A program made the translations under genes and the position numbers. Shown piece by piece: positions 31,821 through 46,797 of a stretch of 64,000 bases of DNA; the stretch's first letter is position 1, and every line of letters begins with the position of its first letter. A model generated the notes under the pieces. The model made no database searches and had not been told where the DNA came from. It saw nothing but the letters and a program-made list of their open reading frames with translations. Origin of the DNA: Candidatus Saccharimonadota bacterium (lineage in GTDB: Bacteria; Patescibacteriota; Saccharimonadia; UBA4664); assembly GCA_019352195.1 (NCBI GenBank), contig JACAFG010000003.1, positions 64,956 to 128,955 on the forward strand. Direction: 5' to 3'.

Positions 31821-32051
31821 GGTTCGCCATCATCAGCTACCCCCTGGACAGCGGAACCAAGCCCATCAGTTTTTCCGTGCTCTACCACCCGAGCGGTATC
31901 GTTGACCTGCTCGCGGTGATCGCCCCGAAGCTCCGGAGCATTCCCGGGCTGGTCCAGATCGCTACCTAGCGCCATACTCAGCTTCCGTCCTCCATCTTGC
32001 CCCGAAAGGAGCGCCAATTTTCGGCGAGCCCTTCGGGGCTTCGTCTTGTTA

Positions 32052-32086
32052 AAACACAAAAACAGCGCTATTGGCGCTGTTTTTGA
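32052..32086. terminator. Bidirectional rho-independent terminator
   Basis: AAAAACAGCGC-tattg-GCGCTGTTTTT. Perfect 8-bp stem with flanking A-tract and T-tract. Confidence 0.65.
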
Positions 32087-32157
32087 AGACTTAATTGCTG
32101 GTGCCCTTAAACGACATCCCTTCGAACAGCTAGTTGATTGGATCGATGTGATCGGAC

Positions 32158-32541
32158 TTAGCTTTGAATCGAATGGGAGTTTAGCCAGTTCGAAATTTCT
32201 TTAACATCGATATGTTTGGTAGCGATTTCGACTGCATAATTTTCAATCTCACCTGCTGTTGCCCGAAATTCAAGCTCGTTAAGTCGAAGTAAGGTTAAAC
32301 CTGCAAGTATGGCCGTACGCTTATTACCATCGACAAATGGATGATCGGCGATAATCCCCCGAATAATGGCAGCAGATTTATCAGTAATATTAGCGTATAG
32401 CTCCTCACCGAAGACGTTTTGGGTTTGCGTAGCAACCGCCGACTCCAGCCTACCAAGGTCGCGCAAACCCGAAGCGCCGCCAGTTTCGGCTAGCACAAGT
32501 GCGTGGATCTCAAGCAAATGCTCGAGCGAAAGCACAATCAT
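32158..32541 (-). CDS. doc: Doc (Fic-family) toxin
   Basis: Fic motif HPFVDGNKRTA. 127 aa. Confidence 0.9.
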   Translation of the reverse strand: MIVLSLEHLLEIHALVLAETGGASGLRDLGRLESAVATQTQNVFGEELYANITDKSAAIIRGIIADHPFVDGNKRTAILAGLTLLRLNELEFRATAGEIENYAVEIATKHIDVKEISNWLNSHSIQS

Positions 32542-32759
32542 CGCTGAGAGAGATTATCAAAATCCTGCTTGTAGTCGTTCAAGATGCCACGAGCAGTAGC
32601 AATGACTTTCTGGTCATCACTGTTAGGAGAGTGGACAGGGCGGACGATTACTTCAACTTCGTCACCAATCGCAATATTCTGACGCTTTAGGTCTTTGGCA
32701 GGAATAGTGACGCCCCCGCTTGAACCGATTTTGATAATTTTTTGGATGCTTTGAATCAT
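32538..32759 (-). CDS. phd: Phd/AbrB-type antitoxin (SpoVT/AbrB swapped-hairpin N-terminus)
   Basis: 73 aa. MIQSIQKIIKIGSSGGVTIPAKDLKRQNI is an AbrB/MazE-like fold signature. Overlaps doc by 4 nt. Confidence 0.8.
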   Translation of the reverse strand: MIQSIQKIIKIGSSGGVTIPAKDLKRQNIAIGDEVEVIVRPVHSPNSDDQKVIATARGILNDYKQDFDNLSQR

Positions 32760-32764
32760 AGAAA

Positions 32765-32794
32765 TATTATAACGTTGTTATAATACTATGTCTA
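32765..32794 (-). promoter_or_regulatory. phd-doc promoter/operator: inverted repeat TATTATAAC-GTT-GTTATAATA overlapping -10 TATAAT; -35 TAGACA
   Basis: Inverted repeat at 32765-32785. The -10 sits 7 nt from the ATG, which implies a leaderless or very short-leader mRNA. Confidence 0.45.
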
Positions 32795-32968
32795 GACCTA
32801 TTTAGTGTGATCTGGATGAGACACATTCAATCAAAGACTATATAAGCCCTCCGTGGAGGTCTTATATTAGAATAATTGTTATTCAATTGTCTTAAATGAT
32901 GCTCTTGAACGACACCTGTTCAAACCCTTAGTTGCGTGGCTCGACCGAATAAGGATCTACTGGGTGAA

Positions 32969-33307
32969 TTAGCCGCTTACTAAACTTTCAATTAGTCCTT
33001 GCGTTTTAGATATGACATTATCGCTGGCCCTCTCCTCATACGCTGGTTTTCGAGCTCGCCAATCAACATTTTTGATCTGATCGGCAAGAACAGCTCCCTC
33101 CATTTTTTTGGACTTGACGCGGACTTCGAATGGATAGCCTTTGATCTTAGACGTTATCGGGCAGGCCAACATCATACCTGAGCGTTCGTTGTAATTTCGC
33201 GACGAAATCACCAGTGCAGGACGCGTGCCAGCCTGTTCGTGGCCAATCTGGGGGCTAAAATCAAACCACACAATGTCCCCGCGGGCGGGGACGTAGTCCG
33301 CTACCAT
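32969..33307 (-). CDS. mazF: MazF/PemK-family endoribonuclease toxin
   Basis: 112 aa. Start MVADYVPARGDIVWFDF...PALVIS matches the PemK/MazF N-terminal signature. Confidence 0.85.
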   Translation of the reverse strand: MVADYVPARGDIVWFDFSPQIGHEQAGTRPALVISSRNYNERSGMMLACPITSKIKGYPFEVRVKSKKMEGAVLADQIKNVDWRARKPAYEERASDNVISKTQGLIESLVSG

Positions 33308-33549
33308 ATTTCATTCCCGACAGGAGCGCCCCAGTCCATTTCGCCGTGAATGTTTTCAGGGGTGATGCCCTTCACTAAGTCGTCCAATGATAACCTGGGC
33401 TGCTCGTCGCGTTTGATGGTAGCCGTCGTGCCGTCGCTGGTAATTTCGACCTGACAATCACTGGATAGGCCGAGATCCCGCGCTACACGTGAGGGAATAC
33501 GGATAGCCAGACTATTGCCCCACATTTTGACTTGGGTGGTAGTTTTCAT
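33301..33549 (-). CDS. mazE: MazE/PemI-type antitoxin
   Basis: 82 aa. WGNSLAIRIPSRVARDLGL is a SpoVT/AbrB MazE hallmark. Overlaps mazF by 7 nt. Confidence 0.8.
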   Translation of the reverse strand: MKTTTQVKMWGNSLAIRIPSRVARDLGLSSDCQVEITSDGTTATIKRDEQPRLSLDDLVKGITPENIHGEMDWGAPVGNEIW

Positions 33550-33573
33550 TGTTCGGCCCCATTAATGCTTAAA

Positions 33574-33595
33574 TTGTATATCTATGTATATACAA
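33574..33595. promoter_or_regulatory. Operator-like palindrome TTGTATAT-ctatgt-ATATACAA upstream of mazE
   Basis: 8-bp perfect arms, about 25 nt upstream of the mazE start. Confidence 0.4.
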
Positions 33596-33644
33596 TGTCA
33601 ATGCAAAAATGTGGAAAACGTAGTTGATTGGCAGAATATCGAAT

Positions 33645-33680
33645 ATCAAAATAAGCGCTTGGTTAAGCGCTTATTTTGAT
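33645..33680. terminator. Perfect 16-bp-stem hairpin ATCAAAATAAGCGCTT-ggtt-AAGCGCTTATTTTGAT
   Basis: Read directly. A/T-rich ends make it a plausible bidirectional terminator/insulator. Confidence 0.5.
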
Positions 33681-33840
33681 AATTTAATTTTCTAAATTGG
33701 TGCAGCTGAAGATAAAAGTTTTGAACCACATCTTACAGATATGGCTGACTGGTTTATAGATAATCCGGCGACTGATTGGCGGCAACGTTTAAGGGAGGCT
33801 GCCAAAGCGTCGCGTGATATTACATATTCCTACTAAACCA

Positions 33841-33868
33841 CTGGGGCTGTGGTCGGATTTTCGAACCT
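33841..33868. repeat. Direct repeat copy 1 (CTGGGGCTGTGGTCGGATTT + TCGAACCT)
   Basis: 20/20 identical to 34501-34520, with 6 of the next 7-8 positions conserved. Flanks the PD-(D/E)xK gene. Confidence 0.6.
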
Positions 33869-33920
33869 TTGCAGCTCCTCTAGAACGTACAAGTCTAATG
33901 AGGGGAAGAGCCTTGTTAAC

Positions 33921-34466
33921 CTAAGGTGCGTCAGGAAATATATCTTCACTATTGGGCGTAGTGGACGTACTTCGAACTTTTGACGTTGCAGTTTGGTTAA
34001 CTCTTGGTTCAAAATCTTTCAAAATCTGTAGGTATTCTAATTGAAGGGCATCCGGTATTTCTGCGAGCGGCGAAATGTTACCATTTTCAAGTATTATCTT
34101 GGTTATCTCGTCAAAATAAAATCCATCGAGAGTCGCAATAAATAAATATGATGGGTTCCACGAGGCATTCATCTTATTTGCCCGAGCTAGAACGTCGTTT
34201 GTATCTAGCCTCCAACGGTATTTAACCTCGATGAGTCGCACTTCTTTTGTATCTAGATTAATTACTGCAAAGTCGGGCGCAACACGGAGACTTTCAATAA
34301 TGGGGTTGTCATGGTTATAGTATTGACCTACCAATTGGGGGACTACCTTTTCGTACCCAAACTCAATTACAGTGTACCTACCGTTATGGCGAAACATTTG
34401 TGCGAATATTGTTTCAGCTATTCTGCCCTTAACGAGGTTCCTGGTGAAATCTATGTTTTCGCTCAT
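33921..34466 (-). CDS. PD-(D/E)xK nuclease-fold protein (restriction endonuclease-like)
   Basis: Motif ...APDFAVINLDTKEVRLIEVKYR (PD...E-V-K). 181 aa. Confidence 0.6.
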   Translation of the reverse strand: MSENIDFTRNLVKGRIAETIFAQMFRHNGRYTVIEFGYEKVVPQLVGQYYNHDNPIIESLRVAPDFAVINLDTKEVRLIEVKYRWRLDTNDVLARANKMNASWNPSYLFIATLDGFYFDEITKIILENGNISPLAEIPDALQLEYLQILKDFEPRVNQTATSKVRSTSTTPNSEDIFPDAP

Positions 34467-34500
34467 AGCTAAAATTCTAACACGTAGCGTTCATGTTTGG

Positions 34501-34527
34501 CTGGGGCTGTGGTCGGATTTCCGACCT
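34501..34527. repeat. Direct repeat copy 2 (CTGGGGCTGTGGTCGGATTT + CCGACCT); contains hairpin GGTCGG-attt-CCGACC
   Basis: Exactly 660 bp from copy 1. Confidence 0.6.
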
Positions 34528-34572
34528 ATTGAAGCTGTACCAGATTCTCCGTCGGCCAAGAGGGTGGCAACC

Positions 34573-34977
34573 TTATTGTCTCGCTAATTGTTGCTTATCG
34601 AGTTCGGTTTCAATAAATCCCCTATACGGCGGAATGTTGCAGGTTGTAATAATATTCTTTATTTGAAGCGTCGTGAACGGTCGTCCGCCTTGATATTTAT
34701 AGTTAATTAGCTCGATGGTCGGGAATGAAAATCGCGCATCAAGCTCCCGCCCCTCGTGCTGAATATGAAAGTGGCTTCCGTGGTCGTTCGAGTGAACAAC
34801 TATCTTGATTCCATTTCCGAATCTTTTTGAGGCTTCTTTGTTGATTACATTGCCAGTTGGCAGCTCGCGTGTCGTCTCAATCGCATTATTCAAGTGGTCT
34901 AGAAATAATGCCTCAATGTCGAGCTTTGATTGTTCGGGCATATTGCCTCCAATTGTTACAAATCTAGCTCTGGCCAC
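34573..34977 (-). CDS. Hypothetical protein, DUF4160-like (HxxHFH motif)
   Basis: HSNDHGSHFHIQ motif. The likely start is the ATG at 34941 (SD GGAGG), giving 122 aa. Last gene of the XRE-led operon. Confidence 0.5.
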   Translation of the reverse strand: MARARFVTIGGNMPEQSKLDIEALFLDHLNNAIETTRELPTGNVINKEASKRFGNGIKIVVHSNDHGSHFHIQHEGRELDARFSFPTIELINYKYQGGRPFTTLQIKNIITTCNIPPYRGFIETELDKQQLARQ

Positions 34978-35753
34978 AGATGCTTAACGTCGCGCTTATA
35001 TTGGTCGATAGCTATTCTTGTTTTTTGCATTTGTGCAGATGCAGAGAGCTTAACAGATAGTAGCTCGCTTGTTGTGCTTACTTGCGCATAAGCCTTATGA
35101 AATAGAAGTTGTGCTTCTATCAAAATACCTAAAGTGCCAGCAGTCATCTGATGGTTGGGTTGATTAAAGATGTTTAGCGTAACGCCCGTGTCCGTGCTAC
35201 TGAAATTACCTCGTAAAAACCCTGCGCTCTGATGCGAACCATATTCATTCAGCCCATCTTTTAGCCGCTTAATTTCGTCGCTCAAGTCAGCATCATATTC
35301 ATTAAGAATCTTCACGGCCATTTCTTTTAGCTTTTCATCGTTTTTATTAGTTTTCCGGCTCTTGTCGTTAAATAACGCATACATGGGCGCTGGTGAGCAG
35401 AGGATGCTTAAGGATATAGTAAAATTCTCCACCGCAAATCGAAGCTGAGATAGTGCCTGTGCGTAGTGCTTCCTCATTACGGATGTAATAACCAAGTATC
35501 CAGCCTCATCAGCTTGAGCCTTGTAGGCTATGCTTAGTTGAGCCATAGCCTTTAGATTCTCGAAATAATTGGGAGTGAAGATGGATTGCCACGCTTCGAT
35601 AGACAAATCAAGTATTGGCTTTTCGTGCTTGTAACTTTCGGAAAGCAATCCATGCTCATTATCAATAAGTTGGCGAAAATCTTTATCCATGTGACTGCTC
35701 TCCACTCCCAAGAAGCATTGGGGGGTGCAACTCAGGGTATATTGCGTAAACAT
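34956..35753 (-). CDS. Hypothetical protein (~244-265 aa)
   Basis: Tightly packed between neighbours. The likely start is the internal Met (MDKDF...) at 35690. No motif recognised. Confidence 0.5.
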   Translation of the reverse strand: MFTQYTLSCTPQCFLGVESSHMDKDFRQLIDNEHGLLSESYKHEKPILDLSIEAWQSIFTPNYFENLKAMAQLSIAYKAQADEAGYLVITSVMRKHYAQALSQLRFAVENFTISLSILCSPAPMYALFNDKSRKTNKNDEKLKEMAVKILNEYDADLSDEIKRLKDGLNEYGSHQSAGFLRGNFSSTDTGVTLNIFNQPNHQMTAGTLGILIEAQLLFHKAYAQVSTTSELLSVKLSASAQMQKTRIAIDQYKRDVKHLWPELDL

Positions 35754-37140
35754 CGTGCAGAATCCATTTCGTCAGCCTTGTCGCATCGAGTAATACATCA
35801 GCGTATGACCGCTCCCCCTCGACATTGGGTAGCAGGTGGAACCGATGCAAAGGGTTTGTGCAGACCATGAACACCTCTCTTCGAATCGCGCCCCATTGGC
35901 CGTGGGTGTAGTGTGACGGCCAGTCATAAAATGTATCGTAAATATCTTTCTCGTCGGCCTTTATCGCTCTATCGCGTAAGTTTGCGTCTTCCCAGTCCCC
36001 TAAGTTGATGCTATTAAATTCCATCCATCTGTCCTCATTGGCTTGCAGAAAAATATCGTCAATATCGACGAAAGTGAATTGTACGCCCGTATTCATCAGT
36101 TTTAGTAAAACTTTCTTTGCCTCGCCGGTTCCGTGGTTTCTGAATGATGCCCAGACTTCCTCTGGTGCGGAACGTAAATATGAGATATTGATGCTCACCT
36201 CAGTTAAGGTACGCAGCGCAAGACGGCCGAGAATGCCGGTGCGCGAGGCTTCATTATCGAGCAATTCATCCAGAATTTTAACCGCAAATAAGCCGGTTCC
36301 TACCGCAATATCAAGTTTTATGTCTTTCTTGTAGCTGCCAATGATATTACGTAGGAGAAACAGCTTTCGTCGTTCATGGCGGATGAAATCAGCCGTATCC
36401 TGAGTAGTGAAGCGTTCTTCATGAGGCGCTCCATAGTCATTTACAAAGCATTCTGTTGATTCAAAGCATCCCTCCCAAAAACTATCAGCCCAGTCGGAAT
36501 GTTGTACCCCCATATCGAACGCTATTTCCATAGAACGAATTGAGGGGCGGGTTTTACGCATATCCGCCACATCTGGATAGTCCAGAATGTCGTAGGGTGT
36601 TGAGCTGCGATGAATGAACGTTATTTTGTTGCTAATCATACCTATGTAGCACTTCGCCCATCGGCAGTCCGTTGCCTCTTGGGATTGATGGTCTAGTGTC
36701 TTGTGAATAGTTAGGCCAAGAGCCTCTCCGTCTGCCTGGTAATCGGGTTCTTCGTTAATGGCGGCTTTCCAGAGGTTATATTGAGGTAAATCTTCGAATA
36801 ATAATAACGGGCGTAGTGCGATGCGATGCTCGCGCGTAGAGCAAATGAAGTTGATTATACGTTCTGCCTTATCGTGCTCAATAGAGCCGAGATTTGTTAG
36901 CTCGATTGAGTTAATTCCCTGATACTCAAATTCATTGAGAATCGGTTTCAATACGTCCGTAAACGTTTGAAGCGCGTAAATGTTTCGTAGTAACGCCACC
37001 CATAAGACTTCGGGCAACGCCCTATCAAACCATGAGCGGTTGGTGAACGGGATTTCCGCGAATGAGCCAACAAGTTTATTTCGCTTCTTTTTTTGCTTGT
37101 TGAGCGGCGTAAAATTCAGATGCTTATAGCGGTCATTCAT
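35683..37140 (-). CDS. Hypothetical 485-aa protein with a Rossmann/MTase motif-I-like segment (KLDIAVGTGLFAV) but no motif IV
   Basis: Begins 10 nt after the XRE stop. No other family signal. Confidence 0.55.
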   Translation of the reverse strand: MNDRYKHLNFTPLNKQKKKRNKLVGSFAEIPFTNRSWFDRALPEVLWVALLRNIYALQTFTDVLKPILNEFEYQGINSIELTNLGSIEHDKAERIINFICSTREHRIALRPLLLFEDLPQYNLWKAAINEEPDYQADGEALGLTIHKTLDHQSQEATDCRWAKCYIGMISNKITFIHRSSTPYDILDYPDVADMRKTRPSIRSMEIAFDMGVQHSDWADSFWEGCFESTECFVNDYGAPHEERFTTQDTADFIRHERRKLFLLRNIIGSYKKDIKLDIAVGTGLFAVKILDELLDNEASRTGILGRLALRTLTEVSINISYLRSAPEEVWASFRNHGTGEAKKVLLKLMNTGVQFTFVDIDDIFLQANEDRWMEFNSINLGDWEDANLRDRAIKADEKDIYDTFYDWPSHYTHGQWGAIRREVFMVCTNPLHRFHLLPNVEGERSYADVLLDATRLTKWILHDVYAIYPELHPPMLLGSGEQSHG

Positions 37141-37149
37141 TTGTACATT

Positions 37150-37449
37150 TTACCCCTTAATGCGATACGGTGAGGCATGGGATGATTTTAGTGATACCAG
37201 CTCTGCAATCGGCACTCGCAGCTTTTGGCAAAGTGCCAAAACCTCGCGCAGCGTAATCTCTGGGTTCTCTCCCCTTTCAATTGCGTATAGCTTCTCAACT
37301 GATATGAATAAGCGCCTGGCAAGCTCCGCAGGTTCCCATTTTTGCTCAATTCTGGCGCGTTTGACCCTGCGCCCCAAATCAACTATCTCTGGATAATATG
37401 CCATTTCGGTTCCCCCTAATCCGCAGAGTATACCGAACATAGACCGCAC
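37150..37449 (-). CDS. XRE-family HTH transcriptional regulator
   Basis: HTH ...AELARRLFISVEKLYAIERGENPEITLREVLALCQKL. The likely start is MAYYPE at 37404 (SD AGGGGGAA). Confidence 0.75.
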   Translation of the reverse strand: MRSMFGILCGLGGTEMAYYPEIVDLGRRVKRARIEQKWEPAELARRLFISVEKLYAIERGENPEITLREVLALCQKLRVPIAELVSLKSSHASPYRIKG

Positions 37450-37532
37450 GAGTAAATAGAGATTTCGAGCGGCGGATGTCCGCCCGTAGGTTTAAACGGG
37501 TATAATGTCTTGATAACGAATGACGAATGTAA

Positions 37533-38417
37533 ATGGCGACCAAGTTTAAGACATTGAAGCTGTACGGCGACGTACTGCTAGACCCTGAGGATAGCGCCTC
37601 TCTCGAAAAGCTGCTTGCCTGGGGTTTTGTGGCCGACGGTGATTCGCTGATTCTCCCTGACGACCTGGCGGGAGCTTATTTAAACGGCGCTGGAACCAAA
37701 TTGCCACTCAATCTCAAGCACTGGCCACAGCGGCAAAAGCGTGGCTTCGAGGATGAATCAGGGCAGCCACAGGACTTTATCTTGCTTACCTACCCAGAAT
37801 CAATTGGCATACTTGAGAACGGGCATGACCTCGAATACTCACCGCGATATTATTCACACTACCCGCTTGAGGCTAGCGATAGAGTCTATCAAGCCGTGGC
37901 CGATGCCAAAATCGACACCCTAAGCGAATGGATTAACTTCCCTTTCAAACTAGACTATGTGCTTGAAAGGCCGTCCGAAGAGCATTTTGTATATGAGGCT
38001 GGAATTGTTCAGCACTTCAAGAACCAGCAGCGCCAGCTTATTAAGGATTTAGCATTCTTAGCCTCTGATGATGGTGACTACGAAATGAAACGGGCGCTCG
38101 TTAATCAACGAAAAAATGCTATCCGTCATACAGACCCTGATAGTCACGTTACGGGGAGAGATGAGCGCGGTAGGCCAGACGAGGAAGAATTATACGTTGC
38201 TGATTGGCGAGGAGTGCTTTTCTACGAGCTTGATTTACTTATCGCGAAAGTGAGCCGTATATCTGTCTGTCAGACCTGTAGGGGGCGCATCGACTTAAAG
38301 CCAAATGAGTGGAGAACTCAGCACACAAAAGATGAAAGCCCATCGTGCTTTAAAGCTTATGATGCGCAAAAGGCGCGAACCTATCGCAAAAATAAATCCC
38401 GAAAAACCATCACCTAA
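37533..38417 (+). CDS. Hypothetical protein (294 aa), C-terminal CxxC (CQTCRGR)
   Basis: Divergent from the XRE gene. TATAAT at 37502-37507 lies upstream. Confidence 0.5.
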   Translation: MATKFKTLKLYGDVLLDPEDSASLEKLLAWGFVADGDSLILPDDLAGAYLNGAGTKLPLNLKHWPQRQKRGFEDESGQPQDFILLTYPESIGILENGHDLEYSPRYYSHYPLEASDRVYQAVADAKIDTLSEWINFPFKLDYVLERPSEEHFVYEAGIVQHFKNQQRQLIKDLAFLASDDGDYEMKRALVNQRKNAIRHTDPDSHVTGRDERGRPDEEELYVADWRGVLFYELDLLIAKVSRISVCQTCRGRIDLKPNEWRTQHTKDESPSCFKAYDAQKARTYRKNKSRKTIT

Positions 38418-38597
38418 ACCGTCACGAAAACCATAGCGTACCTCTAGAAAGCTACGATTATGGTATGGGTATTCAGTCAACCAAATTCGCTACTGGATTA
38501 ACGCCGCTTCGCAAACGGTGTACTTTTGTTTGCCCTCCTTAAGGCTAAAACAACCCACACATTTACCCCACTTCAACATAAACCATAGGAGAATGCC

Positions 38598-39791
38598 ATG
38601 CTAGATATGGTAAGAGTAACACTATTTAGATTTACTTTAAACGACCCAAGCTTATTCACGGATAAGCACGGGAACCACCCAGAGTATATTGATACGCTTA
38701 AATCTGACAGTACAAACTCCAAAGCACGTTTTGGTGTTTATCGGTTCTATAAACTGAATCCCAGCATGGTAAATACTGCCAACGGGTACACCCCACATAT
38801 AACAATACGAATCTGCTCGAACCGTAGGAACCCATATTGGCTAACCGTCCATTGGTCGCCGAATAAGGCTGTATATGGACACAACTACTATGAAGCCAGC
38901 TCAGGCCAATTTGAAGAAATGATTGCAGCAACTATCGAAATGCTCAAGGACTGCGGCATTACGGTTCATCCCATCGACTTGAAGACCTGTCAAAAGATTG
39001 GTCGCCTCGATTACGGCCGTAACGTTTTGCTCACTAATATGTCCGCCAACACATTCATTAGAAATCTAATCTATTTCGAAAAGAATACGCGCTATAAGAA
39101 AGATGGGGAAATTTACGAGAAAGAGTTGACCGGCTCGTATATAGCTTTCTTTAATAAATCTCAGTACCTCATCTTTTACAATAAACCGGCTGAAATACTT
39201 CGCGTTCTTGAGAAGCCCGAAAAGTCGGATACGTCGCACTATCGTTTCGCATTGCAGCTCCGCGAGCATATTCGTAGTCAGCCGCTAGAGGTCATTCGGG
39301 TTGAGCATCGCTTACTCAATCAGACAGCAATAAAACGCGAACTAGAGCCATTAGTAGGCCATGTGTATCCGTTTACGCTTAAAGAGGTCTTTAGTCGGGG
39401 TTTTAGTGAGGCGATATTGCGCAAGCATATTACTCAGGTGACGGGCAAAGGAAGCATCCAGACGTTCGCCTTAGGAGAACTCGATACTACTATTGCTCAA
39501 CAGATGCTAGAAGATGCCTGTAAAGAGATTGGCATGAGAAAGCTCAAGCAGGTATGGCGGGATTATGCCGCAACTTTCCGTATCTCAGGAGAAAAGGCTG
39601 CGTTAAGCTTGATTCTAGAAGCATTGCCCAAGACAACCGCCGAACGTGGCCTCAAACGGTGGGAGGCTTTAATGAATGTACTTACGCTTAATCATGCGCT
39701 GATTCGTGCGAACTCGGAGATTCTATTAGATATAAGCCTACCCTATTCGAGCCTAAAGCTACTGAAACCTATAGAGACTCCCGTGCATTAG
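38598..39791 (+). CDS. Hypothetical protein (397 aa); possibly a replication-initiator-like protein of the integrative element
   Basis: Position (upstream of xis-int) and size only. No firm motif. Confidence 0.45.
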   Translation: MLDMVRVTLFRFTLNDPSLFTDKHGNHPEYIDTLKSDSTNSKARFGVYRFYKLNPSMVNTANGYTPHITIRICSNRRNPYWLTVHWSPNKAVYGHNYYEASSGQFEEMIAATIEMLKDCGITVHPIDLKTCQKIGRLDYGRNVLLTNMSANTFIRNLIYFEKNTRYKKDGEIYEKELTGSYIAFFNKSQYLIFYNKPAEILRVLEKPEKSDTSHYRFALQLREHIRSQPLEVIRVEHRLLNQTAIKRELEPLVGHVYPFTLKEVFSRGFSEAILRKHITQVTGKGSIQTFALGELDTTIAQQMLEDACKEIGMRKLKQVWRDYAATFRISGEKAALSLILEALPKTTAERGLKRWEALMNVLTLNHALIRANSEILLDISLPYSSLKLLKPIETPVH

Positions 39792-39909
39792 AGCCTGAAA
39801 AAAACTACGGTTCGTCTAATGATTCAGGATTACGGCAAGGAGTCACAATATTATAAGCGTAAGCCCTTATCAACCCATTTAAATAACTATTTAACTGCAA
39901 ATAACACCA

Positions 39910-39980
39910 CTATAAACTGACCTATTTACATATAGACCACAATAAACTATCATAAACACACATAAACTCACTAAAACTAT
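39910..39980. repeat. Helically phased ATAAAC repeats upstream of xis-int (39912, 39942, 39952, 39962; variant TAAAAC at 39972)
   Basis: Exact 10-bp periodicity for four consecutive copies. Typical of integrase arm-type/Xis binding sites or iterons. Confidence 0.45.
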
Positions 39981-39989
39981 AAAGGTTTT

Positions 39990-40199
39990 GTGACGGGAGA
40001 AATGATAGTGAACCAGCAGTATTTAACAATCGAAGAAGTGGCAGAAATGCTGCGTGTTAAAAGCACTACGGTGACTGCCTGGTGTAGGGCAGGAAAGCTG
40101 ACGGCATTCAAGCAGCCTGGGGGGAAACGCTGGCTAGTCAACGCTAAAGAACTCAGTGCCATGCAAAAGCAGCAGACAAAGAGCCACGGCAATGCTTAA
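39990..40199 (+). CDS. xis: Excisionase/MerR-like HTH DNA-binding protein
   Basis: LTIEEVAEMLRVKSTTVTAWCRAGKL is an excisionase-family HTH. GTG start after AAAGG. Confidence 0.7.
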   Translation: MTGEMIVNQQYLTIEEVAEMLRVKSTTVTAWCRAGKLTAFKQPGGKRWLVNAKELSAMQKQQTKSHGNA

Positions 40200-41058
40200 T
40201 GCGCACCTTGAAGCATTTCTATCTCACCTCGTGCAGGGTCGCGGTTTATCCGTTGCCACCCAAGCGGCCTATCGTTTCGAGTTAAGCAGATTCATTACGT
40301 TCGTAATGGATTCGGGAGTTGACGACCCCACGCTCGTAACATCAAACAGTATTGCGGATTACCTAGAGGGCATGACTGTAGCCCCTCCGACAAAGGCTCG
40401 TGCGAGAAGTGCAATAAAGTCGTTCTTTAGTTACCTTATCAAGCGCAAAGTGGTGGTGCTCGACCCCACGGTAAATCTCGACACTATCAAACTACCCATC
40501 AAGAGAAGCCCTTACCTTGTGAGGCGTGATTGGGAGCGCCTGTTAGCCGTGATTGAACAATCTGCCACCCCATACTTTCGCCAGCGCGACCTAACCTTGG
40601 TTCAGCTATTATTGATGACGGGGTTACGCCGTGGGGAAGTAGTGCGGCTCAAAGTGCAGGATATAGACCTCGACGAACTTATTATTCTCGTTACCCGCAA
40701 AGGTGGCTCAGAGGGCGTTGTGCCAATCCACCCTGAGCTTGCCAAGACACTCAGAGTGTATCTAGCGGGTACGATGGGCAAGCCGCATGAAGCACTGTTT
40801 ATGAGTAAACTTGGCAGCGCGTTATCGGCTGCTTCGGTCTGGCATATCGTTAAGCACTATGCAGGGCTAGCCGAATTGGATAGCAAATTAACTGTTCATA
40901 GCCTACGCCACAGCTTCGCGAGCCACCTGCTAGACCAAAACGTCGCACTCCCCCATATCCAAGGATTGCTCGGACACCGCAGCCCAGCCACGACAAGCAG
41001 GTACGTACACTTCAATAATCGTCAATTAGCGGCAGCTTTAACGAGCGTTAACTTCTAG
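40156..41058 (+). CDS. Tyrosine recombinase/integrase (XerC/D-like)
   Basis: C-terminal catalytic R...HxxR...Y (HSLRHSFASHLL...TTSRYVH). The likely start is the ATG at 40192, overlapping the xis stop. Confidence 0.9.
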   Translation: MPCKSSRQRATAMLNAHLEAFLSHLVQGRGLSVATQAAYRFELSRFITFVMDSGVDDPTLVTSNSIADYLEGMTVAPPTKARARSAIKSFFSYLIKRKVVVLDPTVNLDTIKLPIKRSPYLVRRDWERLLAVIEQSATPYFRQRDLTLVQLLLMTGLRRGEVVRLKVQDIDLDELIILVTRKGGSEGVVPIHPELAKTLRVYLAGTMGKPHEALFMSKLGSALSAASVWHIVKHYAGLAELDSKLTVHSLRHSFASHLLDQNVALPHIQGLLGHRSPATTSRYVHFNNRQLAAALTSVNF

Positions 41059-41328
41059 CTATAAATTGTTGAATAGCTCTTCGACCTTGATGCCCAGCGC
41101 CTTAGCTAGTCGGTACATCGTCGTAACAGTTGGCCTACGTAAGCCAGTTTCAATGTTTGCAATTGCTACGCGGTCAACACCTGCAGTATCGGCAAGCCGC
41201 TCTTGAGTTAAGCCTTTTTCGCGCCGCAAATCAGCTAGCCGCTTGGCTACGCTATTCAGAAAGGCTTTTTCATCTTGGTGTTCCATTGCCCAAGCATAGG
41301 AATAACCCAGATAGGTGGACATAATCAT
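41059..41328 (-). CDS. XRE-family HTH regulator
   Basis: KGLTQERLADTAGVDRVAIANIETG is a canonical XRE HTH. Confidence 0.8.
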   Translation of the reverse strand: MIMSTYLGYSYAWAMEHQDEKAFLNSVAKRLADLRREKGLTQERLADTAGVDRVAIANIETGLRRPTVTTMYRLAKALGIKVEELFNNL

Positions 41329-41393
41329 TTGATTACAGAGCCATTATCGTGTTCTAATGTGTGTAATCAAATGATTAAGGAGTTTTAACACCC

Positions 41394-41906
41394 GTGAAGA
41401 AGTGTTCCTCATGCCAAACCGAAATAGATGACAAGGCTAAGAAATGCCCAAACTGTAAATCTGACCAGCGCAATTGGTTCATGAAGCACAAAATCATGTC
41501 GACAATTCTCGTTCTCATCGTAATTGGCGTTATTGCCAGCGCGGCTGGTGGTTCCAAGAAAGCCGCAACAAGTGGCACGGGCGGTACAGCACAGCCGCAG
41601 ACGGCAACAGTTGTTGACGTAAAAGCATTCGGTGACGAATTTGATGCTAACCAGGTCGCCGCTGAGAACAAGTACAAGAACAAGCTCGTACAGTTCACCG
41701 CTCCTATTTCGAACATCACAGATACGGGCCTTTCGTTTCAGAACGTAACCTCAAAAGAGTTTTCGACCACTCAAATTAGCTGCAACATCAGCGACAAGAA
41801 CTCGGTTCTTTCACTAAAGAACGGCGAGAGTGCAACCGTAAAAGGCACGGTGACAGGCCAAACCATTGGCGTTATCGAACTCAACGATTGCTCTATCGTT
41901 AAATAG
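41394..41906 (+). CDS. Zinc-ribbon (CxxC...CxxC) membrane-anchored protein with an extracytoplasmic domain
   Basis: N-terminal CSSCQTEIDDKAKKCPNC, a TM helix, then a ~100-aa domain. Confidence 0.55.
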   Translation: MKKCSSCQTEIDDKAKKCPNCKSDQRNWFMKHKIMSTILVLIVIGVIASAAGGSKKAATSGTGGTAQPQTATVVDVKAFGDEFDANQVAAENKYKNKLVQFTAPISNITDTGLSFQNVTSKEFSTTQISCNISDKNSVLSLKNGESATVKGTVTGQTIGVIELNDCSIVK

Positions 41907-41951
41907 CATAATCAACCAGCAGCATCGGACGTTTAGAAAGGGGATGAAATT

Positions 41952-42446
41952 GTGGCATTAACGAAGCGACAATACATTTTTACTGCTTGTGCAGTCGCCA
42001 TACTTGCGTTTGCTGGCTTAGCCTTTAGCGGTCATATACCGTCCTCGCCTTTGCGTACTAGCTATAGCCTCGACAATCCCGCTGCGTCTGGTCCAGATTC
42101 ACGTGCATTCACGGCTAGCGTAACTAGCCCTACACCAAGTCCGTCTGCTAGCATTGACCAAACCGCACCAGCTCCCGCAGGAGGCATTCTAGGTGCTAAA
42201 ACGACTCCGAGTAACCCTAACGCTTCGGGCTTACAAGCTGGAAGCGTAATTGTGCCTAACCCAACCCCAACTCCAGCGCCGACACCAGCACCCACCAGCT
42301 ACACTCGTGAAGAGTTTAAGAACACGAACCCACCTCAGGGGGTTTATTATCTCTGTGGCGACACCTATCAAACGACGACCTGCGACCCTGGCTTGCAGCT
42401 CGTCCCCAGTAACCCTGACCCTAATGACACCACAGTTCAGAAGTAG
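41952..42446 (+). CDS. Secreted/anchored Pro/Thr/Ser-rich low-complexity protein
   Basis: GTG start. Signal-anchor followed by PTPTPAPTPAPT repeats. Confidence 0.45.
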   Translation: MALTKRQYIFTACAVAILAFAGLAFSGHIPSSPLRTSYSLDNPAASGPDSRAFTASVTSPTPSPSASIDQTAPAPAGGILGAKTTPSNPNASGLQAGSVIVPNPTPTPAPTPAPTSYTREEFKNTNPPQGVYYLCGDTYQTTTCDPGLQLVPSNPDPNDTTVQK

Positions 42447-42643
42447 GCACGTCCAAGCGGGACAATAAAGTAATATAGGCCCACCGGCCTTGCTTTCCAT
42501 CACAGCCCACTCCCGCCAACTAACCTATAGCTTATAGGGTCACAAACAAAAACGCCTACCCCGAAAAAACTAGGTAGCATTTTTCGAAAAGAGCAAAAAA
42601 TTTTCCCGCATTTTTTTTGAAATTCTACGCAGGTCGAACCTGT

Positions 42644-43567
42644 TTAAATAGCGAGGTCGAGCGGTAGGTCGCTAATATCTTTTAGGCGCTTACCCTCAAC
42701 CATGATATTCATTAGCTCAATTGAATCTTCGTTTCCAAGCGACTTGACCGCTTCCATCAACTCATAGAGAGCAAAGTGATAAACGCAATCAATATCGCCA
42801 GTACCCAGAGCTAGGGATGAAAGCCGACTAGGCAGCGGTTCGCCGGTAACGACCATGATATGCGGCAAATTGCCTTTGCGGTTGCGGATTAGATTTAACG
42901 CCTCAGACCGGCTATTCTGCGCTCTATCCGAACGCATTGTCCATTTGGCAGAAATCGAAGCGTGAAGCAGAGCCTCACCGCCGTTGCTCTTTCGTAAATC
43001 TGCCCTCAATGAAACAGAATCATCAACTAATTTTTCGTCGCTATTTATTTCTTCATCGGTTACCAGCTCGCGGGATATAACAATGTCGGGTGTAATTGTG
43101 TAGTCGCGTCCAAGGGCAACTGCTAAATCGGGATTGGTCATAGCCGCCTCTTTGAGGGCGATTAAATGCTTGTACTGCTCAAAACCCGCAATACCCTTAA
43201 CGCTCTTGTTGCCTATTTTTGAGATGGTAAATTCGCCTGGCCGTAGGCTGCCAAGGTGATGGAACGTAGCCTTTACAAAACTCGCGACAATTTCTTCAAA
43301 TTGACTACCACTTGTTTGCCCTGCAAGCTTCTCGTGTGTTTCAGACACAAGAAATTTAGCAATGTGTCCCGCGATTGCGATACTAGCCCCGTTTCCTTTG
43401 TCAGCATTTGAGGCAACCCCGTTCTCATCTATCGACAGGATTGTTTCAAGCAGCCGAGCGTGAAAGTTTTTCCGCTCACGAGCAATTAACACTTGCTCGT
43501 CTATGTTAGTCATTGGGACTTTGGGTATTTTCGGCATATTCTCGTCAGGTACTAAAGCGTCAGACAT
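42644..43567 (-). CDS. Type II restriction endonuclease (partner of the upstream m5C methyltransferase)
   Basis: Overlaps the methyltransferase stop by 8 nt. 307 aa with a PD...E-x-K-like segment. Family not assignable. Confidence 0.6.
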   Translation of the reverse strand: MSDALVPDENMPKIPKVPMTNIDEQVLIARERKNFHARLLETILSIDENGVASNADKGNGASIAIAGHIAKFLVSETHEKLAGQTSGSQFEEIVASFVKATFHHLGSLRPGEFTISKIGNKSVKGIAGFEQYKHLIALKEAAMTNPDLAVALGRDYTITPDIVISRELVTDEEINSDEKLVDDSVSLRADLRKSNGGEALLHASISAKWTMRSDRAQNSRSEALNLIRNRKGNLPHIMVVTGEPLPSRLSSLALGTGDIDCVYHFALYELMEAVKSLGNEDSIELMNIMVEGKRLKDISDLPLDLAI

Positions 43568-44555
43568 TACTTACTTCCTTTACTGTATTTAGTTTAACTG
43601 CACTAGCATCTTCCGACGCGTAGATAGCATCGGCAATCGCTTCTCCAACCGCTCGCGCAACTGGCGGCGGGAAAGCATTACCAATCTGGCGATAGGCGGC
43701 AGTTTTGCGACCTGCGAACAGCCATTCGTCAGGAAAGCCCTGAACACGAGCAGCCATCCGAACTGTAAGCTTCGGCAGCCCCTCATGGCCGATTCCTGGA
43801 ATGTCATCACTAATTCCCTTGCCGTTAACGCCCAACAACTCCCAAGCTGCTTTAGCTCGTGTAGGGCCGAGGTCAGGGCCGCCATGCTTTTTACTTCCGC
43901 CAACCAATGTAGGCGCAACTTTGTTAGCGAGCAAACGCCATTCGTCGGCTTTCTCCCAACCTTGGCTTGCCATCAAATCATGCAATGCCTCGCCTACCGT
44001 AACTTGCTTCGAATTGCCTATCGGCCATACAAAATACGGGAATATTTCTTTTTTTAGTGCCACCAATATAGCGCGGGGGCGAAGCTGCGGAACCCCAAAA
44101 TCTGAGGCGTTTAAAAGCTTCCACTCGCCCTGGTAGCCCATCTCATCAAGCTTATCGAGAATCTCTTTTCGATAGTCTATGAATCCTTTCGACATAAGCC
44201 CTTTGACGTTTTCGAGTAATACGGCACGAGGGTTTAATTCAGATACGAGGCGTAGGGCTGAGGGGAATAAATCTCTTTCGTCATCTGCGCCGAGCTGTTT
44301 TCCTGCAACAGAAAAGGGAGGGCATGGAACGCCGCCAGCAAACAAATCTACTCCCTCATATCCTTTGCCAGACATCTTTTTAACATCTGCAACAACAACA
44401 TTCCATTCCGGTCTGTTGAGAAGCAATGTTTCGCAGAATTGTGGCTCAATCTCGGCAACTAAAGTATGCTCGAAACCCGCAAGCTCCAAGCCTAGTGCTT
44501 GGCCGCCAGCCCCTGCACAAATCTCGATAGATGTTAATTTCTTCCTCTTTGCCAT
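43560..44555 (-). CDS. DNA (cytosine-5)-methyltransferase
   Basis: Motif I (CAGAGG), PC motif GGVPCPPFS, ENV motif LLENVKG. Confidence 0.9.
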   Translation of the reverse strand: MAKRKKLTSIEICAGAGGQALGLELAGFEHTLVAEIEPQFCETLLLNRPEWNVVVADVKKMSGKGYEGVDLFAGGVPCPPFSVAGKQLGADDERDLFPSALRLVSELNPRAVLLENVKGLMSKGFIDYRKEILDKLDEMGYQGEWKLLNASDFGVPQLRPRAILVALKKEIFPYFVWPIGNSKQVTVGEALHDLMASQGWEKADEWRLLANKVAPTLVGGSKKHGGPDLGPTRAKAAWELLGVNGKGISDDIPGIGHEGLPKLTVRMAARVQGFPDEWLFAGRKTAAYRQIGNAFPPPVARAVGEAIADAIYASEDASAVKLNTVKEVSNV

Positions 44556-44870
44556 ACTCCCCTTGCCTTTCGTTCGATTATACAGAGCATCTATCAGATA
44601 TGAAATGCCTATGCTTATGTTCGGTATGTGTACGGTATACTATACCACTCGCGCAACAATTGCGAGTCAGTTCAATGACTGATGCCGAGGTTGCCCTCAA
44701 TCTCTATTCTGAGCCATTTAGGGCCTACTAGAGGGCTTCTAAGCGGGTGGGCGATACTTTACCGGTTGACGGCACAACGAGGCTGTGTGACAGCTCTACA
44801 CACATTGCACGTTTCAGGCCGTCACTGATAGCGTCACCAAACTCAAAAGTGGGCCTACGGCCGGTAGGCT

Positions 44871-45080
44871 GTGATTATGTCGAGCCAAGTAACATTACCT
44901 AAAGAGAACGCCCCCAAGCTCAATCCAGTTATTGAGCTTGCTCGTCAAGCCGACATGGACGAGGCGGCTATTTGGGATGATTTTATTGAACTTCTGAAAT
45001 CTATTGATGCGGAGACTCCGCTGGCAAAACTGAACGAATCCACAATTATTGACAGAGACGGTGAGCGTATCGAGCTGTAG
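44871..45080 (+). CDS. Small hypothetical protein (69 aa), possibly a recombination directionality factor/regulator
   Basis: Position immediately upstream of the serine recombinase only. Confidence 0.3.
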   Translation: MIMSSQVTLPKENAPKLNPVIELARQADMDEAAIWDDFIELLKSIDAETPLAKLNESTIIDRDGERIEL

Positions 45081-45106
45081 GTTGGTTTAAGTGTTAAAAT
45101 TTTACC

Positions 45107-46696
45107 ATGTTAAGCCAAGAACCAGTAGACCTTACAAAACTTCGTTATGTACTTTATGCCCGTAAATCGACGGATGATAATAACCGCCAGGTTCGGTCTG
45201 TTCCCGACCAAATTAGAGATTGCCAGAAACTGGCAGATAGCATGGGGCTACGGGTTGTTAATATTATCCGAGAGAAAAAATCGGCTAAAAAGCCCAAAGA
45301 ACGAACCGAATTTACGCAGATGCTGCGTGACCTAGAAGCAAAGAAGTACGATGGGATTTTGTGCTGGCATCCAGACCGACTATGCCGCAATATGCTCGAA
45401 GGCGGCGAAATCATCAATATGCTTGATGAGGGGGTAATCAAGGATATTAGGTTTCATAGTCATCAATTTAGCAACGATGCCAATGGCAAGATGCTACTCG
45501 GTATGTTATTCGTCTTCTCGAAACAATATTCCGACGACCTTTCAGCAAAGGTAAGCCGAGGGGTTCAGGGCAACTTTGTTGAGGGTAAATCATCAGGAAC
45601 ACCAAAATGGGGCTACGACCGCGAAGATACCACAGGGCTTTACGAGCCGAACGATTCATTTGATTTGATTACTGAGGCTTGGAAAAGACGTGCGAGCGGC
45701 CAGACGCTTCAGCAAATTTTAGATTTTCTCCTTGAGAGCGGCTATCAACGAGTAACTAAAGATAAGCGCCACCGCATTATCAAGCCAAATATTAACGCGC
45801 TGAGCATACTGTTTCGTGACCCGTTCTATTATGGGAAGTTAATCCAGGCAAATCAGGAAGTTGACCTGCGTGAAATATATAACTTTGAAGCGATGATAGA
45901 TGAGGCGACTTTTAACGCTGTGCAGGTGATTGGTTATGGCAGGACGCAAGATGTCCACCCCAAGAAACGAGCGACTTTCTATCCGCTACATCGCTTTGTT
46001 TATTGTGCCATCTGCAATGACCCTAAGCCTATGTCTGTTGGGAAGAATAGAAATGGCAGCGGTCAGCACGTTCTGTCGTATCGTTGCGATAACCCTACCT
46101 GCACTCGCAAGCCCAAATCTATGAGGGCGAAAAATATCTTCAGCTCAATATATGTGATGTTAGAACGGTTTGAGCTGTCAGACGATGCCTACGACCGCTA
46201 CAGCCGCAGTATAGATAGTATGACCGACTCAAAGCTCGTGCGGCTCAAGCAGGACATACTGAGCCGTAGAGGAGCCTTAACGCACATCAAGAGCGAGCTT
46301 AGTGAACGAGCTTTGAAAATCGGACTAATTGATACCGACTCACCCACCTATAAAATTAACGAGAAACGTGTGAACGAGCTTGCCTTGCAACAGGGGGAGC
46401 TTGAAGATGCGATTAGCAGGATTCAAGAAAAGATTGTCGACCCCCAACGAATCAAGCTAGGCAAAGTTGAGTTTTTGAACTTGGTAAAAAACGCCTCTGC
46501 CAAGCTTAAAGCTGGGTCTGCCGTCGAGAAAGACGCACTATGCCGAATTTTGTTCTTGAACGTACGAGTTGATAGCGAAAAAGTGGTCGATTATATCTGG
46601 AGGGAGCCTTTTGCTAGTCTCGTAAAAGTAGTTGAATTATCAATTGGTGCGGATGATAGGAATCGAACCTACACGTCTTGCGACACCAGTACCTAA
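45107..46696 (+). CDS. Large serine recombinase (integrase)
   Basis: N-terminal resolvase catalytic motif YARKSTDD...R. 529 aa. The 3' end overlaps the tRNA-Leu 3' half by about 50 nt. Confidence 0.88.
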   Translation: MLSQEPVDLTKLRYVLYARKSTDDNNRQVRSVPDQIRDCQKLADSMGLRVVNIIREKKSAKKPKERTEFTQMLRDLEAKKYDGILCWHPDRLCRNMLEGGEIINMLDEGVIKDIRFHSHQFSNDANGKMLLGMLFVFSKQYSDDLSAKVSRGVQGNFVEGKSSGTPKWGYDREDTTGLYEPNDSFDLITEAWKRRASGQTLQQILDFLLESGYQRVTKDKRHRIIKPNINALSILFRDPFYYGKLIQANQEVDLREIYNFEAMIDEATFNAVQVIGYGRTQDVHPKKRATFYPLHRFVYCAICNDPKPMSVGKNRNGSGQHVLSYRCDNPTCTRKPKSMRAKNIFSSIYVMLERFELSDDAYDRYSRSIDSMTDSKLVRLKQDILSRRGALTHIKSELSERALKIGLIDTDSPTYKINEKRVNELALQQGELEDAISRIQEKIVDPQRIKLGKVEFLNLVKNASAKLKAGSAVEKDALCRILFLNVRVDSEKVVDYIWREPFASLVKVVELSIGADDRNRTYTSCDTST

Positions 46697-46728
46697 AACT
46701 GGCGTGTCTACCATTTCACCACATCCGC
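46645..46728 (-). tRNA. tRNA-Leu (anticodon TAG), type II with long variable arm, CCA encoded
   Basis: Manual fold: GCGGATG acceptor, GTGGTGAAATGGTAGACAC D-arm, anticodon loop TTTAGGT, variable hairpin GTC-GCAA-GAC, T-loop TTCGATT. Confidence 0.8.
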
Positions 46729-46797
46729 AGGCGTTGTGACTTAGCTATTATACCGATGCTGGGGCAAAACATAAGCCTAAGTTTGAGTCTCGGTATG

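Follow-up and report, generated by a model that had tools for sequence, protein, structure and literature searches.

Within a 64-kb stretch of a Candidatus Saccharibacteria contig (the whole stretch is called the window below), genes for an XRE-family helix-turn-helix regulator, a 485-amino-acid (aa) protein of the DitA family, a 244-aa protein, and a 122-aa protein follow one another on the minus strand as one tightly packed, co-directional unit. DitA is a component of Aditi, an anti-phage system of two proteins, DitA and DitB (Millman et al. 2022 preprint). Our preferred interpretation, which we hold tentatively and at slightly less than an even chance, is that this operon is an Aditi-like anti-phage module lacking DitB and forms part of the cargo of a low-GC mobile island in the Saccharibacteria genome.

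Similarity of the 485-aa protein to DitA

The 485-aa protein (35683–37140, minus strand; HJC99_03315) matched the PADLOC DitA model PDLC03826 with E = 2.4e-66, its residues 11–463 aligning with model positions 4–467 of 486. Residues 309–421 matched the Pfam family DUF5677 (PF18928) with E = 9.7e-18 and 65.2 bits, the gathering threshold being 27.1. In Table S2 of Millman et al., the Aditi system of Saccharibacillus kuerlensis (DSM 22868), in which a 483-aa DitA is followed by a 372-aa DitB, has the mark “v” for observed defence, and BLASTP against this verified DitA gave 23% identity over 384 aa (E = 3e-21). Identities to the DitA proteins of C. difficile and S. salivarius plasmids were 26–27% (27% for S. 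salivarius). An alignment of the window clade with four canonical DitA proteins, in which S. kuerlensis DitA was covered over 399 residues, revealed a common set consisting of W37, P43, W47, T157, D158, R160, Y188, R198, R202, E205, F221, W222, C231, R306, R310, G337, G339, K342, Y401, Y405, S409, H413, W416, R420, C427, H432, and H435. Every residue that its clade has in common with the canonical proteins compared is kept in the 485-aa protein. On these profile and alignment matches, its membership of the DitA family is solid.

An AlphaFold2 (AF2) model of the protein, calculated from a 20-sequence alignment, was essentially all-alpha (predicted local distance difference test score, pLDDT, 84.4; predicted TM-score, pTM, 0.70), with short strands only at residues 17–19, 22–24, 424–426, and 436–438. 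A sequence search of solved structures with the DitA profile gave no meaningful match. The initial annotation of this DNA, made from the sequence alone, had reported no similarity of the 485-aa protein to known enzymes and had taken its DIAVGTGLF segment as a Rossmann/methyltransferase (MTase) motif I. The former statement is superseded by the clear PADLOC, Pfam, and BLASTP matches. The latter does not hold either, as residues 274–295 are helical in the all-alpha model and only G281 is invariant. A Rossmann-fold, S-adenosylmethionine-dependent methyltransferase was rejected for this protein on the grounds that no MTase family of Pfam was matched and no beta-alpha-beta fold was present in the model.

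The initial annotation had further proposed that the operon is a novel defence system. The defence part of this proposal is reasonable in view of the DitA family and of an island containing toxin-antitoxin (TA) and restriction-modification (R-M) genes. The novelty is not, because the large protein is a homolog of DitA, and the operon is therefore better described as an unusual variant of Aditi than as a new system.

Organization of the operon

The four minus-strand open reading frames (ORFs) lie where the initial annotation had placed them. The mechanical ORF of the XRE gene spans 37150–37449 and encodes 99 aa from GTG 37449. The true start is most likely ATG 37404, which has a ribosome-binding site (RBS), GGGGGA, ahead of it and gives an 84-aa protein (37150–37404). 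The gap between its stop codon and the start of the DitA-like gene is 9 nt, rather than the 10 nt reported initially. The mechanical ORF of the 244-aa gene (34956–35753) encodes 265 aa, and the start ATG 35690, which defines the 244-aa product (34956–35690), overlaps the end of the DitA-like gene by 8 nt including its stop codon (ATGGATAA). The mechanical ORF of the last gene spans 34573–34977 (134 aa); its start ATG 34941, which defines the 122-aa product (34573–34941), lies 14 nt past the stop of the 244-aa gene, with a GGAGG Shine-Dalgarno sequence 5 nt ahead of it. Both the overlap and the 14-nt spacing, already noted in the initial annotation, can be read directly in the sequence, and the NCBI annotation has identical 244-aa and 122-aa products (HJC99_03310 and HJC99_03305).

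A consensus scan found a promoter-like site, TTTACT-18-TATACT, on the minus strand at 37427–37456, 5′ of the XRE gene. This is a consensus match only, as promoter-like matches in the region are not more frequent than in shuffled sequence (4 found, 5.9 expected). No inverted repeat that could serve as an XRE operator was found in 37380–37560. The XRE protein matched Pfam HTH_31 (E = 3.6e-10, 40.4 bits; cutoff 27) and HTH_3 (27.8 bits; cutoff 23), with HTH_26 likewise above its cutoff. It also matched PADLOC HTH_VI (E = 5e-7) and a PHROG family of transcriptional regulators. By these HTH_3/HTH_31 matches it is a member of the XRE/Cro-C1 regulators.

The 122-aa protein is a near-orphan with a His-rich segment (HSNDHGSHFH). 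Its DUF4160-like character, asserted in the initial annotation, falls below the Pfam threshold: the match to DUF4160 (PF13711) has E = 0.025 and 15.2 bits against a cutoff of 23, and covers profile positions 1–39 of 65. A search of 5.8 billion proteins found a single relative, with 47% identity and with unrelated neighbours, and a sequence search of solved structures gave no meaningful match.

Conservation of the gene set and rival explanations

Some of the results in this section weigh against the interpretation of the operon as a DitB-less Aditi-like module, and several bear on rival explanations. No protein of the window matched the PADLOC DitB model even at E ≤ 10 (as a positive control, S. 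kuerlensis DitB matched PDLC03827 with E = 3e-109). The 244-aa protein occupies the position of DitB, and sequence comparisons provided evidence against a relationship between the two. BLASTP was negative, as were phmmer and hmmsearch with two- and four-sequence DitB profiles; hhalign gave E values of 0.46–0.86; and the protein is about one-third shorter than DitB (354–372 aa). The idea that it is a diverged DitB or DUF5677 domain was rejected after hhalign comparisons with the full DitA alignment, its N- and C-terminal halves, and a four-sequence DitB alignment, all of which gave E > 0.1. One member of the 244-aa family reaches DUF5677, at E = 0.0033 only. In the plasmids of C. difficile and S. 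salivarius, an overlapping same-strand gene for a 354–356-aa protein follows the DUF5677/DitA gene; these partner proteins are homologous to DitB, with identities of 33% and 26% to the S. kuerlensis protein.

DitA-like genes are widespread. A scan of one genome per species with two DitA motifs, HQSQE[AS]TD and CxNPLH[RK][LYF]H[RL], found relatives in at least 256 species-representative genomes, which belong to many bacterial phyla, including several lineages of the candidate phyla radiation (CPR), and to archaea. Eighty loci fetched from this 256-genome scan and three from the closest homologs gave 83 DitA-like loci from other genomes (L001–L083). The XRE, 244-aa, and 122-aa proteins, and a 181-aa protein encoded downstream of the operon, have no relatives in any of them, and when every ORF within 4 kb was clustered by BLAST, no neighbour family recurred. 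PADLOC and Pfam scans of 24 downstream neighbours, 45 upstream neighbours (the PADLOC result for the latter being the top 25 families listed), and nine larger downstream ORFs found no DitB, and local searches of the loci with hidden Markov model (HMM) profiles of DitB and the 244-aa family found nothing. An all-against-all blastn of the 400-nt flanks matched only a few individual locus pairs, with no conserved non-coding element beside the DitA-like genes. In one such pair, L048 from an Alteromonas metagenome-assembled genome (MAG) and L062 from a Patescibacteria MAG, the flanks on both sides of the gene are 82–92% identical, which, across such different phyla, suggests either that the locus was recently transferred horizontally or that binning went wrong.

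Since the 83 loci lack DitB, the 244-aa and 122-aa proteins, and any conserved partner, the trio of the window is unique to it. The initial annotation had named failure to find the trio in any other genome as a result that would refute its proposal, and the trio was indeed not found in these loci. Because the pairing of a DitA-like gene with a 244-aa gene was seen nowhere else, a functional partnership of the two proteins rests on the gene overlap in one genome. The closest relatives of the DitA-like protein (46–49% identity) are encoded by genes that are solitary or lie beside an HNH gene.

The absence of a conserved neighbour and the solitary state of the closest relatives favour the main rival explanation, in which the DitA-like protein alone constitutes a single-gene defence or abortive-infection (Abi) module, and the genes for the 244-aa and 122-aa proteins are cargo in their own right, such as small Abi- or TA-like genes, that only share its transcript. 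The same is true of the relatives of the 244-aa protein, which occur alone or beside other systems, and of the unrelated neighbours of the sole 122-aa relative. However, with an 8-nt overlap, a 14-nt gap, and good RBSs, the genes look translationally coupled, and verified Aditi has been described as consisting of two proteins. Fused DitA-like proteins also suggest that the family works with added modules. Locus L029 (5920–8883; Acidobacteriota MAG) encodes a 987-aa DitA-like protein with about 480 extra aa at its C-terminus. This C-terminal region has no match in the PDB, is unrelated to DitB and the 244-aa family, and matches only the related locus L024 (5773–8910), where it is distributed among several ORFs, either because of frameshifts or because it constitutes a gene of its own; judged by the fusion, it is a possible Rosetta-stone partner of the DitA-like protein. 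Another homolog, P0038 (777 aa), has an N-terminal extension; a fused 244-aa-like domain was rejected for this extension (hhalign E = 0.41). Taking both sides together, we regard the single-gene explanation as unlikely, but as the most serious of the alternatives.

The neighbourhoods of DitA-like genes bear on a second alternative, namely that the DitB-less clade serves mobile-element biology or another cellular process and that the operon is a chance set of hypothetical genes. In favour of this explanation, some DitA-like loci lie in ordinary neighbourhoods, with glycosyltransferase genes nearby and with gyrase, RNR, and RtcB among the upstream genes, and no DitA-like gene was found in 50,697 phage records. 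In addition, the B. simplex Aditi (DitA 490 aa, DitB 361 aa) gave no defence (“x” in Table S2 of Millman et al.), and the positives reported from E. faecalis do not include the DUF5677 ORF assayed there. On the other side, the residues common with verified DitA are strongly conserved, and DitA-like genes are found repeatedly beside defence and mobility genes. These neighbours include type IIG and type I R-M genes, DrmMI-like and PglX (BREX) genes, an NsnB/AriA/GajA-like ATPase, a PD-Lambda-5_A-like protein, HNH genes, and recombinases, and the island of the window is itself rich in TA and R-M genes. We consider a non-defence role improbable, and less likely than the single-gene explanation.

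The 244-aa protein belongs to a rare family. Its only match in a word-seeded search of 5.8 billion proteins was to itself; when 1.84 billion cluster representatives were scanned exhaustively with HMMER, 22 relatives emerged. All but one of these are 25–41% identical over the matched stretch and most are 236–273 aa long; the remaining one, a 4312-aa protein with a short match that is repeated, was excluded from the family alignment. A metagenome scan for the family yielded one short contig. In the 21-member alignment, His153 in the sequence GSHQS is invariant, and E12, W34, Q59, S70, Q78, R84 (in LR(Y/F)AxEN), and G151 are nearly so. The AF2 model is a very confident helical bundle (pLDDT 92.7, pTM 0.89). 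Foldseek with this model found nothing significant, a sequence search of solved structures with the family profile gave no meaningful match, and matches to HEPN structures (including PDB 4nqf, 2hsb, 1wol, 1ufb, and the sacsin HEPN 3o10) had Z scores equal to those of generic helical bundles. The HEPN motif Rx4-6H is missing from the family alignment: R84 and H153 are 69 residues apart, and no conserved arginine precedes H153 by 4–6 residues. Because of the negative Foldseek result and the missing motif, the protein may be called HEPN-like in its modelled fold at most.

Relatives of the 244-aa protein never adjoin a DitA-like gene in the loci examined. One of them, P0131 (31% identical to the 244-aa protein by HMMER and 29% by tblastn; present on 21 contigs), is encoded 5 nt 3′ of a Gabija GajA-GajB pair, a GajA-like OLD/TOPRIM ATPase gene followed by a UvrD-like helicase gene (L090/L091, 147–4759), a position that would suit a third gene associated with Gabija. 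Another, P0130, lies tail-to-tail with and 1 nt from a gene whose 535-aa product combines a reverse transcriptase with a trypsin-like protease (L098, 2959–5311; L099, 842–3194), an architecture reminiscent of retron or DRT-type defence genes. Both placements speak for our interpretation of the operon as a defence module. Other relatives follow a gene encoding a protein with a GSGKT (P-loop-type) motif or stand alone. A few family members (P0137, P0142, P0143, and P0144) carry a SEC-C motif at the C-terminus. The same motif (CxCGSxxKFKxCHG) is present N-terminally in one DitA-like homolog, P0085 (PF02810 plus DUF5677); on these sequence matches, it is an accessory motif common to two otherwise unrelated families.

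The low-GC mobile island

The operon lies in an island extending from about 32000 to 46730, with a GC content of about 0.43–0.50 compared with 0.54–0.60 outside; the operon genes have values of 0.42–0.49 and the flanks 0.54–0.58. Downstream of the operon on the minus strand, the 181-aa gene (33921–34466) is followed by two TA pairs identified by Pfam, one consisting of PemK/MazF with a MazE-type antitoxin and the other of Fic/Doc with a second MazE-type antitoxin. The initial annotation had identified the 181-aa product as a PD-(D/E)xK nuclease; it has no match in Pfam, NCBIfam, PADLOC, or PHROGs. Two 36-nt direct repeats (33841–33876 and 34501–34536; 86% identical) bracket this gene and look like the ends of a small inserted cassette. 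Their first 20 nt are exact (CTGGGGCTGTGGTCGGATTT), with 0 matches expected by chance, and the reverse complement of the repeat resembles the 3′ end of a tRNA.

On the other side, a block of genes for replication, excision, and integration is divergent from the operon. It is headed by a 294-aa ORF (37533–38417), divergent from the XRE promoter region and with no match in Pfam, NCBIfam, PADLOC, or PHROGs. The block continues with a weakly Phage_CRI/G2P-like Rep gene (38598–39791), an HTH_17 excisionase-like gene (39990–40199), and a tyrosine integrase gene identified by Pfam (40156–41058). Overlapping genes of a complete type II R-M pair follow on the minus strand (42644–44555), encoding an NgoMIV-family restriction endonuclease (E = 1e-121) and a C5 cytosine MTase (E = 2e-67). 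The island ends at a tRNA-Leu gene (46645–46728, minus strand), the sole Rfam match in 31–48 kb, and the reading frame of a large serine recombinase gene (45107–46696) extends into the 3′ end of this tRNA gene. With the tyrosine integrase and the serine recombinase, the island has two recombinase modules and may consist of elements in tandem or nested in one another. No convincing direct repeat that could represent att sites joins the left GC boundary with the tRNA-Leu end. Since the two TA pairs, the R-M pair, the integrase, and the serine recombinase flank the operon, the mobile defence-island context proposed in the initial annotation is confirmed.

The TA pairs raise the question of whether the operon is itself a TA or addiction cassette that stabilises the island, with the XRE protein as antitoxin and repressor, one of the downstream proteins as toxin, and no primary anti-phage role. 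Two classical TA pairs are found directly downstream, on the strand of the operon, HEPN-like folds are common among TA toxins, and the XRE protein is weakly similar to a Y4mF/HipB-type antitoxin model of NCBIfam (E = 2e-5). However, at 24.4 bits this match falls far short of the cutoff of 71.65, no XRE relative was seen at the other DitA-like loci, HTH_3 is non-recurrent among the 45 genes upstream of DitA-like genes, and DitA stems from a system with observed phage defence. The addiction-cassette explanation thus seems to us very improbable and, like a non-defence role, less likely than the single-gene explanation.

Discussion

The literature searched describes no biochemical mechanism for Aditi, and the steps by which a DitB-less Aditi-like module might work are therefore offered as hypotheses. 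The XRE protein would determine how strongly the operon is expressed from the candidate promoter at about 37456–37427. The DitA-like protein would be the essential core and act as a combined sensor and effector. Its conserved surface, rich in Arg, Lys, His, and Tyr, may bind a phosphate-rich ligand such as a nucleic acid or nucleotide, and C231, C427, H432, and H435 may form a structural zinc site. Both the ligand pocket and the zinc site are suggested by residue conservation only, which is to be counted with the points against our interpretation. The translationally coupled 244-aa helical-bundle protein would replace DitB functionally, as a partner or effector, most plausibly as a non-canonical HEPN-like RNase or a regulator. 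The 122-aa DUF4160-like protein would be a lineage-specific add-on. By analogy with HEPN-containing Abi systems, the outcome may be an abortive-infection-type block of phage growth.

A bolder extension of this interpretation, which we regard as doubtful, is that DitA-like proteins form a defence core that is widespread, sufficient by itself, and able to exchange partners, these being DitB in Firmicutes, the fused region of about 480 aa in the Acidobacteriota locus L029, and others elsewhere. The window would then hold an undescribed Aditi subtype of a CPR genome, in which an HEPN-like 244-aa protein, whose family is also appended to Gabija, replaces DitB as an effector or modulator under XRE control.

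Aditi is among the few defence systems of the 2022 screen in which neither protein has a recognisable domain. Because none of the 83 loci carries DitB or a fixed partner, DitA probably represents the functional core that is conserved, with DitB as a partner specific to certain lineages. The residue set invariant across both DitA clades provides concrete targets for mutagenesis, and the 244-aa family offers a small, confidently folded, uncharacterised candidate accessory module found repeatedly beside defence genes. If active, the operon adds to the sparse record of phage defence in reduced Saccharibacteria genomes. System-level tools require both ditA and ditB for an Aditi call, and with DitB absent, the expectation of the initial annotation that such tools would find nothing here is probably correct. 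Since the DitB-less clade is broad, rule-based finders of this kind probably miss most of the family.

Compared with known families, the 122-aa protein shares with DUF4160 an N-terminal strand and the His-rich signature (VVHSNDHGSHFHIQ), but it carries an extra N-terminal segment of about 45 aa, and the partner gene typical of DUF4160 was not seen in the window. The DitA-like protein resembles Pfam DUF5677 proteins in its above-threshold match, and its database relatives are named DUF5677 domain-containing proteins, whereas the domain spans only about one-quarter of its length. Unlike canonical Aditi, the operon has no DitB, and the protein encoded downstream of its DitA, 244 aa rather than 354–372 aa in length, is unrelated to DitB by sequence. 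It also has an additional upstream XRE regulator and a third small gene, and its DitA belongs to the DitB-less clade spread across many bacterial and archaeal phyla. In common with Aditi, it possesses a full-length DitA homolog (485 aa compared with 483–490 aa) that retains the family-wide residues, and the gene for this homolog is followed by an overlapping gene on the same strand, as in the DitA-DitB arrangement of the C. difficile and S. salivarius plasmids.

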